DNA of 64,000 nt from Eledone cirrhosa (lineage: Eukaryota): the NCBI GenBank assembly GCA_964016885.1, contig OZ024742.1, positions 189,720,001-189,784,000 on the forward strand, written 5' to 3'. The position numbers and the translations under genes were made by a program. This document shows positions 25,968-56,696 of the stretch, in pieces; positions within the stretch are counted from its first letter, which is position 1, and every line of letters starts with the position of its first letter. The notes beneath the pieces were generated by a model, which was not told the DNA's origin, did not search any database, and saw nothing but the letters and a program-made list of their open reading frames with translations.

Positions 25968-26006
25968 TGAACAAGTACTTTCATGCTTTCGCAATCTTCA
26001 GGTTCA
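25968..26006 (-). ncRNA. Type I hammerhead ribozyme motif
   Basis: Minus strand reads TGAAC-CTGAAGA-t-TGC-gaaa-GCA-t-GAA-AGTACT-T-GTTCA. Confidence 0.85.
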
Positions 26007-30859: not shown

Positions 30860-31580
30860 TTAATCCTGTTGGGCCGCTCGGGTCTGTGCGTACTCCGTCC
30901 CATGCCCTTGGCCTGTGTTACCCGCAGGATTCCATGCTGTAAATGTGCATCTTCTCTGGTGTCTGCAGGTCATGATAATTTCAGACTTCAGGTTGACCGT
31001 GTCATCTTTCAGTCTGACTATCTCCATGGCCTCGTGTAGGCATAATCGGCACTTTCTACTTCCAGCCGAGTATGCTCTCGCATGCCGAACGATACTCCAT
31101 TCAAGGGCGTACGGAGTGCCTTGGTCTTTCAGGTCCCACACCAGGTCCGCTAACCTAGTGGAGTGCCTTTTGCTTGTCCCTGAAGGAATTTGTGTGATTA
31201 TACATCCGCGATTTAAAGGTCGTGGATGTTGCGCCGATGTAGCTGCGATGCGCATTTTGGGTTCTAACCACGCACTTGTATATTAGGTGCTTCGTCAGGC
31301 ATTTTCCCTGCAGGGGGCACTGGGTGCCCGCTCTGCAGTTACAAGTTCTGTTGTCAGTTCTTTCGCGTCTGATGTCTGGGCCTCGATCTGTTATGGCCCT
31401 CTCAGGATTCTCAGGGTATTGTTCCGTCGACACGGTGGTCTCCCCTGTACCACTCGTTCCCTCCCGGCATTGGATCATATCACCCTCCACGGGCGTTTCA
31501 GCCACCTCTGGGGCCGGGTTGTCATTTGAGGGCCGGTCCCCGGGTGGTCCCCCGTGCTCCGTTAGACGGTCATCCTGTCG
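30860..31580 (-). pseudogene. Penelope-like (Neptune-type) GIY-YIG endonuclease with one frameshift
   Basis: CNCRAGTQCPLQGKCLTKHLIYKCVV...SYIGATSTTFKSRMYNHTNSFRD, frameshift near 31170, then KRHSTRLADLVWDLK...W...CRLCLHE...VNLKSEIIMTCRH. Confidence 0.9.
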
Positions 31581-31594
31581 CCATATATATATAT

Positions 31595-31745
31595 AAAAGA
31601 AGAAATTAAAAGATGGTTAAACTAGTTCCATATATTTTATTATGCGCATTTCGAAAACAACATCATCCTGGGACAAAAGTGCAAAAAAGACAAAAAAGTG
31701 CAAAACCTACATATGTAGGTTTTGCACTTTCCTGTTGACAAGTGT
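31595..31745 (-). mobile_element. Fragment of the 55.9 kb hammerhead family with a perfect 36-bp palindrome
   Basis: Minus strand has GAA-ATGCGCAT-A-ATAAAATA...GGAACT as at 56012. Palindrome AAAGTGCAAAACCTACATATGTAGGTTTTGCACTTT at 31695-31730. Confidence 0.75.
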
Positions 31746-35720: not shown

Positions 35721-35986
35721 ATCAGATAGGGTGTGGTAAAAACCAGTTAGACCATAACACACCAGAGTATTCAATACTTGGTGTAGTAGAGTGAGTAATA
35801 TGAAAAAATTCAGGGGTCCTGAAACTTTTCATATTACCTACTCTACTACACCAAGTACTCTGGTGGGTTATGGTCTAGCTGGTTTTTACCACACCCTATC
35901 TGATCTTTAATGCCTACTTCAATAGTGGAGCACTCTTTGACCCATACCACACTTCCATCCAGGCTCTAATAAGGGGTCCTGAGTCT

Positions 35987-35991
<5 letters not shown>
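35721..35991. mobile_element. Fold-back element of the GAGCTC family; relatives at 43985, 45851, 50844 and 56531
   Basis: Arms at about 35721-35812 and 35818-35904. GGGGTCCTGA..CTTTTCATAT is repeated directly about 160 bp later (partial tandem, pLTR-like). TA-flanked. Confidence 0.8.
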
Positions 35992-36024
<33 letters not shown>

Positions 36025-36826: not shown

Positions 36827-37152
36827 GAAAAAAGTTTGTCCTTCATCAGTGATCTTCCAACCATCATAGGCATTTCATCGCTTTAAAGACCATATACCTC
36901 CGGTTGGTGCGAGCAACGGTTAAAAAAAGTCGTTGGGACACGTAAATAAAGGGGACGCGAGGGTAAACAAACAAAATGACCCTCGCGTCCCCTTTATTTA
37001 TGTGTCCCAACGACTTTTTTTAGCCATTGCTCGCACCAACCGGAGGTATATGGTCTTTAAAGCGATGAAATGCCTATGATGGTTGGAAGATCACTGATGA
37101 AGGACAAACTTTTTTCTTATGTAAACCATTTGCAACTCCGCAGCGCCCTTAT
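36827..37152. mobile_element. Fold-back palindrome (about 138-bp arms), same family as 22471
   Basis: Arms 36827-36964 and 36979-37116, plus an unpaired tail of about 35 nt. TA on both sides. Confidence 0.9.
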
Positions 37153-41894: not shown

Positions 41895-42664
41895 GGCGGT
41901 GGATTGGCAGAATTGGTTGAGATTTGGACACCCTGCTTCACAGCATAGAGTTTCTGAGTTTAAATCCTGCCAAGGTTAGTTTTGCCTTTCATCCTTACAA
42001 GGTCAATAAAATAAAGCACCAGTCGCTCACTGGGGTCAATTTTATCGACTTTCCCCACTCCCCAAATTGCTGACCTTGGTGCTAAATCAGAAACCATTAT
42101 CGAGGTCAACTTTGCCTTTCATCCTTACGGGGTCGATAAAATACAGTACCAGTAATGTACTGGTTAATTGCTGGCCTTGTACCAAAAGTAGAAACATTAA
42201 TATTATTATTATGGAGGTGGATAAAATAAAGTACCAGTAATGAACTGGGGCAGATTTGGCCGACTTTTCCCTTCCCTTCAAATTGCTGGCCTTGTGCCAA
42301 ATGTAGAGACAATTATTATTATTATTATAATTCTGATCACTGTAATAATAAGTGTTTCTACTTTAGGCACAAGGCCAGCAATTACCCAGTGTATTACTGG
42401 TACTTTATTTTATCGACCCCGTAAGGATGAAAGGCACAGTCAACCTCGGCAGGATTTGATCACTGTAATAATAATAATAATAATTGTTTCTACTTTTGGC
42501 ACAAGGCCAGCAATAACCCAGTGCATTACTGGTACTTACTTTATTTTATCCTTACGGGGTCGATAAAATAAAGTACCAGTAATGCACTGGTTAATTGCTG
42601 GCCTTGTGCCAAAAGTAGAAACAATTATTATTATTATTATTATTATTACAGTGATCAGAATTAG
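41895..42664. mobile_element. Cluster of about six family A SINE pieces in both orientations
   Basis: Repeated ATAAAGTACCAGT and TTGCTGGCCTTGTGCC segments separated by (ATT)n. Confidence 0.9.
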
Positions 42665-43738: not shown

Positions 43739-44113
43739 TATATATATATGTGTGTATGTGTTTGTACATATATTTATTATTTTATGTTTTTATTATTTTA
43801 CTTATTTCACTCAGACTGTGGCTATGCAAAAGTATTGATTTAGTTGACCATATCGACCTCTGTACTTATTTTAAGAATCTACTTTTGACAAACCACTGAG
43901 GTATGGGGCATAAATAAAGACACAATCACAAATATAAACACACACACATAGACATGTATATATATATATATATATACTAATTGTTGGAAATGGAAAGGCT
44001 AGAGCTCAGCCGTCGGGCCCTGGCACTTTATAATATAGCCATACTCTACTATCCCAAGATATTGAATACACAGTTAAGTAATGGTCTAATTAGTTTTAGC
44101 TGGTATATATCTG

Positions 44114-44156
<43 letters not shown>

Positions 44157-45810: not shown

Positions 45811-45856
<46 letters not shown>

Positions 45857-45921
45857 GAGTTAGGACCCCGACGGCTGAGCTCTTGTCGTTACAAACTCTC
45901 TATGTATATGTGTGTGTATAT

Positions 45922-50776: not shown

Positions 50777-50802
50777 CGCACACATATGTATATATATATA
50801 TA

Positions 50803-50843
<41 letters not shown>

Positions 50844-50851
<8 letters not shown>

Positions 50852-50985
50852 AGATTCAGAACCCCGACGGCTGAGCTCAGCCGTCGGGGTTCTGAATCTT
50901 TTCATATTACCAACTCTACTACCCCTAGTATCGAGTACTCTGGTGGATTATGATCCCTTTGGTATTTTACTACACCCTTTCTGAT
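50844..50985. mobile_element. GAGCTC-family element with a perfect loopless 64-bp palindrome
   Basis: ATATGAAAAGATTCAGAACCCCGACGGCTGAG|CTCAGCCGTCGGGGTTCTGAATCTTTTCATAT, centre 50875/50876. TA on both sides. Confidence 0.9.
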
Positions 50986-50986
50986 A

Positions 50987-51079
<93 letters not shown>

Positions 51080-53139: not shown

Positions 53140-53460
53140 GAATCTCGTATTACTAAAGAAATATGGTATATTTATAAATAAACATTTAGAAAGCCATAGC
53201 TATGAAACACAGTTGCACCTCATTTACACAGACAAAAAAACTATATATTTCCGCCTGTTTTCAAAGTCCAGCAGTTGCAGGAGCGGGAGAGATTGTCCTG
53301 ACGAGAACCAGTTGAGTTCGAAATGCATCGACGACTGTCTCCCTTGCTTCTGCTAGACACCTCTGGGTGGCATTAACTGTCAGTGTGTTATTTATAGCTA
53401 TGGCTTTCTAAATGTTTATTTATAAACATACCATATTTCTTTAGAAATACGAAATTCAAA
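53140..53460. mobile_element. Inverted-repeat element enclosing a hammerhead
   Basis: Arms of about 62 bp at 53141-53203 and 53394-53456. Confidence 0.85.
53293..53334 (+). ncRNA. Minimal type I hammerhead ribozyme, canonical core
   Basis: TTGTC-CTGACGA-GAAC-cagttga-GTTC-GAA-ATGCAT-C-GACGA. Predicted cleavage after C53329. Confidence 0.92.
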
Positions 53461-56530: not shown

Positions 56531-56531
<1 letters not shown>

Positions 56532-56690
56532 CGAAGGAAATGTGGTAAGAAACCAGGTGGACCATAACACACCAAAGTACTCAATACTTAGAGTAGGGTA
56601 GTAGAGCTCAAGCCGTTTCGACAGCTAATTCTGGACTAGAATTAGCCGTTGAAACGGCTTGAGCTCAGCCATCGGGGTCCTACTCGTTCC
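56531..56690. mobile_element. GAGCTC-family fold-back element with hammerhead 3' halves
   Basis: Palindrome 56604-56666; each arm reads outward GAA-ACGGCT-T-GAGCTC. Confidence 0.8.
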
Positions 56691-56696
56691 TATATA

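Follow-up and report, generated by a model that had tools for sequence, protein, structure and literature searches.

We analysed 64,000 nucleotides of the genome of Eledone cirrhosa (assembly GCA_964016885.1, contig OZ024742.1, positions 189,720,001 to 189,784,000; hereafter the window). The window is AT-rich animal DNA packed with TA tracts, in a genome of 3.0 Gb. At positions 50844–50907 it holds a 64-bp palindrome centred on GAGCTC, which a first-pass annotation made from the letters alone had described, correctly, as perfect and loopless. The two arms of the palindrome belong to the terminal repeat (pLTR) of a retrotransposon family that we place below among the Penelope-like elements (PLEs). 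The annotation had missed that the palindrome runs on rightward into a 78-nt tail before a second TA tract. In the following list, family positions are counted from the predicted cleavage site of a hammerhead ribozyme (written GUC/GGGG, the slash marking the scissile bond), which places GAGCTC at −13 to −8:

50788–50846, no strand: left (TA)n target tract
50844–50907, no strand: perfect loopless palindrome, 64 bp; two head-to-head pLTR arms with the central GAGCTC common to both
50844–50878, minus strand: inverted tail-less arm, family positions −13 to +22, ending CATAT at the TA tract
50873–50878, no strand: GAGCTC, predicted loop of hammerhead helix III and self-complementary overlap between the arms
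50883–50889, plus strand: GTC/GGGG, predicted scissile bond 50885/50886; mirror copy at 50866/50865 on the minus strand
50908–50985, plus strand: 78-nt tail, +23 to +100, on one arm only
50984–51078, no strand: right (TA)n target tract

The outer four bases of the palindrome read ATAT on each side, the left ones running into the TA tract, and the 5′ half of the ribozyme is absent. The copy is assigned to subfamily 1 of the three subfamilies that can be distinguished in the repeat. Relative to a native-type copy it carries eight differences in the tail and one common to both arms; a C-to-T change at +6 is present in both arms.

The palindrome recurs across the genome

The 20-bp core of the palindrome was found at 142 genomic loci and its reversed control at none, which indicates that the palindrome is not a product of chance. 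A variant of the centre was found at 75 further loci, bringing the copies that turn at GAGCTC to at least 217. We fetched the first 41 of the listed GAGCTC loci less one; by type, 32 fall in subfamily 2 and 8 in subfamily 1. All 40 junctions consist of head-to-head family arms, and a script scored 37 as carrying the tail on one arm. Since these sister junctions lie at other loci, an assembly artefact is unlikely to be behind the focal palindrome.

The arms are the ends of a Penelope-like retrotransposon

Among the 30 best matches to the focal copy, the right end is constant and the left sides vary. Walking upstream in longer copies (L164, L160, L163 and L024), we found that a 3′ untranslated region (UTR) of about 1.2 kb links the ribozyme region to the end of a GIY-YIG domain, for which a first look gave 55,590 candidates genome-wide. 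One locus, L201, holds an intact element. It consists, in order, of an inverted copy, a repeat, the tail, an open frame of 789 codons, the 3′ UTR, a second repeat and a TA tract, with about 3.6 kb between the repeats. The hammerhead is present in both repeats and the tail on two of the three repeat copies; here the tail extends into the 5′ leader ahead of the first ATG. Read by eye, the open frame contains the YRDD motif of a reverse transcriptase (RT) and a C-terminal VIY..YIG motif of a GIY-YIG endonuclease. Its protein (P0001) also shows HSDKTG, CNCPDRSIC (a CxCX5C linker), CNLC (CxxC) and CKH (CxH), lacks CCHH, and has RWR where the Hydra clade of PLEs has RWK. A Pfam scan of fragments, comprising five pieces of open reading frame (ORF) and an RT fragment beside L012, returned no relevant family. 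The partial tandem, the inverted 5′-truncated copy and the optional tail by which PLEs of the EN+ type are recognized are all found in L201, and the family's insertions sit in (TA)n, as they do for the Hydra clade. Judged by these sequence marks, the arms of the palindrome are the ends of a PLE with Hydra-clade protein motifs.

Two other assignments were set aside. An ORF in L165 was considered as the coding link of the family; it belongs to a neighbouring relative and is not continuous with the ribozyme in L165. A miniature inverted-repeat transposable element (MITE), or another DNA transposon with terminal inverted repeats, was rejected on the grounds that junctions and arm lengths vary between copies and that the arms are the ends of an RT-coding element.

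Short copies are abundant: we counted three in 200 kb of blind tiles and 40 when tiles and flanks together covered about 1.0 Mb, and there are tens of thousands of such scraps per genome. Subfamily 2 looks recently active. Near-identical long copies, some with long open frames, occur in inverted pairs at L201, L202, L204, L207 and L210.

A predicted hammerhead places the cut downstream of GAGCTC

As the first-pass annotation had noted, the window lacks the ribozyme's 5′ half, which is found in longer copies elsewhere: 47 of them align as ACCCC, UUGAUAA, G, helix II, C, GAAA, helix III, UC, GGGGU. The ACCCC ahead of the core pairs with the GGGGT after GUC to form helix I. GAAA is followed by helix III (ACGGC/GCCGU), which is near-palindromic in its native form and has GAGCTC as its loop. 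Longer family copies are thus predicted to hold a full type I hammerhead, with a GUC triplet of the NUH type at the cut. The predicted scissile bond, at 50885/50886 in the focal copy, lies 13 nt downstream of the site that had been proposed. The annotation had asked for longer copies with CTGANGA preceded by a strand pairing with GAGCTC; a core was indeed found, but it reads UUGANAA and has ACCCC upstream in place of that strand.

The core is a U3-A8 variant, in which position 7 is free, U3 and A8 are kept in most copies and G10.1-C11.1 is present. We assessed pairing in 32 copies hand-picked from 58 across the three subfamilies. The expected pairs form in 91% of cells, compared with 27–52% in slid controls, and the three helices are paired at 94%, 88% and 95%. 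Three pairs are altered on both sides, all in helix II, and the three-way junction is the unconstrained folding minimum in two of three folded copies. Weighing against the fold, the folding z-scores of three copies are weak (−2.3, −0.7 and −1.1), and the both-sided changes in helix II stem from a few subfamily-level events. C3 occurs together with A8 in three of the 32 aligned copies, and the sequences hint at a switch from C3-G8 to U3-A8 in the history of the family. Some older long copies (L082, L078 and L088) have other core spellings, one of them the canonical CTGAGGA.

Searched against Rfam, the window, in which the 5′ half is missing, gave no hammerhead and only sub-threshold microRNA-like matches among the best 150 of 227 rows; a scan of it for CTGANGA...GAAA gave no match from the palindrome's family. 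Canonical CUGANGA hammerheads of other families, with TA-palindromic helix III, occur at L203 (minus strand, 3857) and L215 (plus strand, 8108; minus strand, 7662). Deletions that span helix III, with AGCTGTC and AGCCGTC as the near repeats at either end, recur in our family at L090, L075, L069, L132, L048 and others, suggesting that the hairpin was skipped in the template.

Junctions cluster at −41, with minor classes at the cut and at GAGCTC

We counted exact head-to-head junctions genome-wide at three positions. At −41 there are 423 in subfamily 1, 2,736 in subfamily 2 and 1,519 in subfamily 3, a total of 4,678. The cut, GUC/GGGG, gives 351 (5 + 346), with only 5 in subfamily 1 against its 423 at −41, and GAGCTC gives the 217 already mentioned (142 + 75). 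All reversed controls gave zero. The patterns are not strictly comparable, as those for GAGCTC are fixed whereas those for −41 and the cut allow 0–8 filler bases. A count of GAGCTC turns within three edits was discarded, since the native near-palindrome also matches.

Samples drawn blind to the junction gave the same picture. Arms were collected with an exact 32-base anchor downstream of the cut, which matched 509 loci, the first 100 of which were fetched; the blind samples are the flanks of L061–L159 and L221–L260, with tiles L281–L300 added for a set of 40 arms. Among 109 tail-bearing arms, 57 have their furthest 5′ end between −46 and −37, 5 in the GAGCTC zone, 2 at the cut and 10 beyond −60. 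The 40 arms from about 1.0 Mb of unselected flanks and tiles end at −47 to −37 in 19 cases, at GAGCTC in 3, at the cut in 1 and beyond −60 in 5. At their other ends, inverted arms mostly stop at +20/+22 (45 of 72 at +22 in sample A) and tail arms near +100. The main turn point is therefore −41, and GUC/GGGG and GAGCTC are minor classes. A peak of turn points at GAGCTC, as the annotation had foreseen, exists in the sense that the turn is recurrent; it is minor beside the −41 class.

The GAGCTC junctions differ from what an RNA end should leave. Only 18 loci keep two GAGCTC hexamers within 8 bases. On at least one arm, 16 of these extend into native upstream bases; the other two are blunt, and none of the 18 has foreign filler with both arms stopping at GAGCTC. 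An RNA end at this position would often give both-arm stops, blunt or filled, and such stops are scarce. We conclude that GAGCTC is not an RNA end and that the 217 loopless junctions are overlaps through a self-complementary hexamer.

The −41 class suggests a capped start

Position −41 falls on the A of the motif TTAGTY, which is kept in all three subfamilies inside an otherwise divergent loop. TTAGTY resembles the initiator element. Read by eye, 38 of the first 50 junctions in subfamily 1 have the form GAAC-GTTC, the two halves adjacent or separated by a single A/T, and 1 of 100 arms has the native T at −42. In subfamilies 2 and 3, some arms continue natively to about −45, and an unambiguous non-native G stands at −42 on 24 of 200 arms, as against 12 with C (several of them a native variant) and 4 with A. 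An extra G has been ascribed to a copied cap in other retroelements, and an internal promoter is known in Drosophila Penelope (PMC2377424, PMC13282606, PMC4889970, PMC3846280 and PMC2912911 bear on these and related points). It is likely that −41 is the capped start site of the element's RNA. No downstream promoter element was seen by eye at +28 to +32 from the −41 base. Sequence contigs of undefined type over L201, unfit for mapping RNA ends, show strand-switch joints at 2857–2864, around the −41 base at 2860. If transcription does start at −41, the 5′ end of the RNA would keep only the substrate half of the ribozyme and the 3′ repeat would hold the whole one.

The +1 class is consistent with ribozyme cleavage in vivo

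We inspected the first 50 listed junctions at GUC/GGGG by eye. In 25 of them both arms stop exactly at the first G, with foreign filler between; 12 have no filler, 10 fit an overlap through CCGTCGG and a single native C is present in 3. None of the arms extends to −4 to −8. In a subset of 20, taken from the filler and no-filler types, every junction consists of a short arm and a tail arm, with TA on both sides save in one or two. A single central base is A or T in 11 of 12 cases at +1 and C or G in 15 of 17 at −41 (Fisher p = 2e-5; the −41 side comprises subfamilies 2 and 3 and leaves out subfamily 1, where a lone A/T is the rule). Two copies in the window itself begin at +1, at 35813 and 35973. 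From these patterns, the +1 junctions are likely a DNA record of in vivo cleavage by the ribozyme, which would leave an uncapped end. The annotation's proposal of such a record was wrong for the palindrome it described and probably right for the family, at GUC/GGGG. Its broader idea that junctions can record RNA ends is probably borne out at the family level.

The same junctions might instead come from an RT that stalls at the base of helix III or slips on the G run, or from a minor start site, an explanation that we regard as possible but doubtful. The +1 site does lie at the base of the hairpin and in a run of four Gs, a circumstance that tells against cleavage, as does the fact that offsets +2 to +8 fall outside the genome-wide count. 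C followed by G also fits a pyrimidine-purine start, the 12 junctions without filler also fit a 2-nt CG overlap, as the 10 already mentioned fit CCGTCGG, and the class is rare in subfamily 1. Against stalling or slippage stand the 25 junctions with foreign filler in which both arms end immediately before the unpaired C17, and the lack of any arm that reaches −4 to −8; the central bases argue against a capped start at +1.

Two primings joined through helix III are the probable origin of the palindrome

We propose that the palindrome consists of two short head-to-head copies of the terminal repeat in a TA tract, reverse transcribed from both nicked strands and joined through helix III, and assign this reading a probability of roughly 0.8. 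RT would prime at two internal sites on the RNA, +20/+22 and about +100, from both nicked target strands in the TA tract. Most complementary DNAs (cDNAs) would run off the capped 5′ end at −41 and some off the ribozyme-cut end at +1, followed by end joining. The focal copy would represent a less common result, the two arms meeting within the palindrome of helix III either at insertion or by later deletion: a few per cent would pair early via GAGCTC, or lose the inner hairpin between two GAGCTC copies later. By extension, the head-to-head ends of PLEs may come from two primings on the sense strand, close to where the RNA begins, like a pair of strong-stop DNAs.

The arms themselves carry the evidence for two primings. 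Of 63 insertions, 19 have a tail-less arm that extends past the tail-bearing one in the 5′ direction by 10 nt or more, and 9 of 72 insertions have tails on both arms, which makes a single folded-back cDNA doubtful. We find no clear sign of arm homogenisation, with 16 of 476 arm-arm mismatches compared with 48 of 1,950 tail differences.

Some observations speak against this account. The 19 of 63 signal could also result from deletions that arose later in the tail arm, and for the focal copy joining at insertion and later deletion are indistinguishable. GAGCTC is a recurrent turn point, at roughly 4–7% of the −41 class, and its turns are undercounted, since the search patterns contain two CpGs and do not match the AGCTGTC variant. 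We also expected most GAGCTC turns in the subfamily with the most palindromic helix III, and this prediction failed: scaled from 32 and 8 of the 40 loci, there are about 114 turns to 2,736 (about 4%) in subfamily 2 and about 28 to 423 (about 7%) in subfamily 1.

A variant of the proposal with other timing holds that the common −41 palindrome formed first and that an inner hairpin of about 56 nt was then lost between the GAGCTC repeats. The two hexamers are direct repeats flanking the hairpin in every −41 copy, extra helix III units are present in 3 of 40 sampled junctions (L237, L245 and L247), other short-repeat deletions across helix III are common, and the share of GAGCTC turns (4–7%) is alike across the three subfamilies. 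On the other hand, no allele pair was seen, and young, near-unmutated copies already have the GAGCTC junction. We regard later loss of the hairpin as a tentative alternative.

Self-priming is less probable still. In this reading, put forward for PLE head-to-head junctions in PMC3846280 with an antisense template, a single nucleic acid strand would fold back, here at the helix III palindrome. The arms of one insertion are mostly of the same variant (22 of 28 are identical at a diagnostic 10-mer), as in the focal copy with its shared change at +6. However, a tail-less arm cannot template a tail, and it cannot easily be reconciled with fold-back that this arm extends further 5′ in 19 of 63 cases or that two tails occur in 9 of 72. 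Tail-less ends also close full-length elements, and foreign filler in the −41 and +1 classes agrees with end joining. We consider self-priming unlikely. The annotation's notion of a cDNA that folded back thus keeps its retrotransposition product, while the simple one-cDNA fold-back is doubtful. Its full model, with GAGCTC as the cleaved 5′ end of the RNA, draws on the loopless GAGCTC junctions and on GAAA just upstream in longer copies, and is very improbable given that no GAGCTC-pairing strand precedes the core, that helices I and III put the cut at GUC/GGGG, that run-off type junctions are missing at −13 and that the −41 class is far larger.

Relatives and other repeats in the window

Further copies of the family lie in the window:

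35721–35904, no strand: older head-to-head copy, each arm with a tail; the plus arm begins at 35813, the first G past the predicted cut, and the other arm at +5
35973–35994, plus strand: solo tail-less arm, beginning at the first G past the predicted cut
43977–44115, plus strand: decayed relative retaining GAAA, helix III and the tail; identity to the focal copy about 77%
45849–45894, minus strand: tail-less arm; similarity continues about 12 nt beyond GAGCTC
56531–56692, no strand: subfamily 2 head-to-head copy, turning at 56637/56638

The hammerhead-like 3′ halves that had been noted ahead of GAGCTC are present, as GAAAGGCTAGAGCTC at 43993 and GAAACGGCTTGAGCTC at 56651. What had been overlooked is that GAAACGGCTTGAGCTC belongs, as one of two arms, to a longer inverted pair, 56604–56666, with its turn at 56637/56638. 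The inverted arm of this copy reaches the A of the initiator-like TTAGTCC (−41), and bases between GAGCTC and CTCTACTAC are deleted from the tail arm. The copy at 45851 was said to lose similarity at GAGCTC; it does not clearly do so, as a BLAST alignment with the 56651 copy (82% identity) goes on for about another 12 nt, to 45894.

Other features lie outside the family or at its margins. A GIY-YIG fragment at 30893–31349 (minus strand) is 36–43% identical to P0001, the protein of the intact element, and a second loopless palindrome, of 36 bp, lies 350 nt from it at 31695–31730. A minimal complete hammerhead candidate of another family is found at 53293–53340 (plus strand), with TTGTC, CTGACGA, a short helix II, CGAAA, a palindromic ATGCAT, C and GACGA. 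Inverted CTGAAGA...GAAA motifs about 80 nt apart, at 26001 (minus strand) and 26084 (plus strand), are probably head-to-head ends of another PLE family. Long inverted repeats at 36878–37064 and 42338–42630 belong to other repeat families and gave sub-threshold microRNA hairpin scores in Rfam; the latter is a member of the dispersed family D18/D20.

Comparison with known systems

PLEs of the Hydra clade, as described in PMC8557442, have DKT, CxCX5C, CxxC, CxH and RWK but no CCHH, are generally below 3 kb and carry a tail of 30–40 nt. The octopus family shares the C-terminal GIY-YIG domain, the DKT, CxCX5C, CxxC and CxH motifs, the lack of CCHH, the pLTR hammerhead, the (TA)n targets, the inverted 5′-truncated copies and the optional tail. 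It differs in its length of about 3.6 kb with a 1.2-kb 3′ UTR, in RWR, in a tail of 78–80 nt and in its U3-A8 core, a variant described for Cercyon PLEs of Schistosoma (PMC4209133). Like the PLE hammerheads of that paper, the predicted ribozyme is of type I with a short helix I, a long helix II with G10.1-C11.1 and a palindromic loop 3, and opposite-strand pairs lie close together. Unlike them, it has a helix III of 5–6 bp with a GUC triplet and could fold as a monomer, and the main 5′ end of the short copies falls within its loop II, which is about 30 nt long.

In vitro, the Poseidon element PAc of Anolis nicks and extends both target strands and uses two internal start sites (PMC11167929). 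It resembles our family in that these starts define tails, in its AT-rich targets and in the hammerhead between pLTR and ORF. There, cleavage is dispensable in vitro and no RNA-seq reads end at the cut, whereas here hundreds of genomic junctions begin at the predicted cut. The Penelopes of Adineta vaga (PMC3846280) likewise show palindromes at the inverted junction, an optional tail and an initiator-like pLTR motif; the proposal there is self-priming on an antisense template, whereas the statistics here fit two sense-strand primings running off fixed 5′ ends. As in twin priming of L1 (PMC2912911), both target ends would prime and the cDNAs would anneal at short complementarity, but L1 arms copy different parts of the RNA, while here the same short 5′ region is copied, giving a palindrome.

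Head-to-head PLE palindromes, PLE hammerheads and tails are already in print, and the focal palindrome itself is an ordinary, common by-product. In the literature searched, which did not extend to the Terminon paper (PMC5850863) or the supplements of PMC11167929 and PMC4209133, we found no report of genomic junctions peaking at the cut of a PLE hammerhead. The supplement of PMC8557442 gave no match to the junction motif; at least two of its four 'octopus' rows are Naiads.

Taken together, we think it reasonably probable that the palindromes form a fossil map of RNA 5′ ends: most would record a capped start in helix II that splits the hammerhead, and several hundred would record cuts made in vivo at GUC/GGGG, the cut RNA having been reverse transcribed and inserted. 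Palindromic scraps of this kind could be mislabelled as MITEs or microRNA hairpins. The family predicts both RNA ends to the base, and it offers an intact source element together with junctions that can be counted in their thousands.
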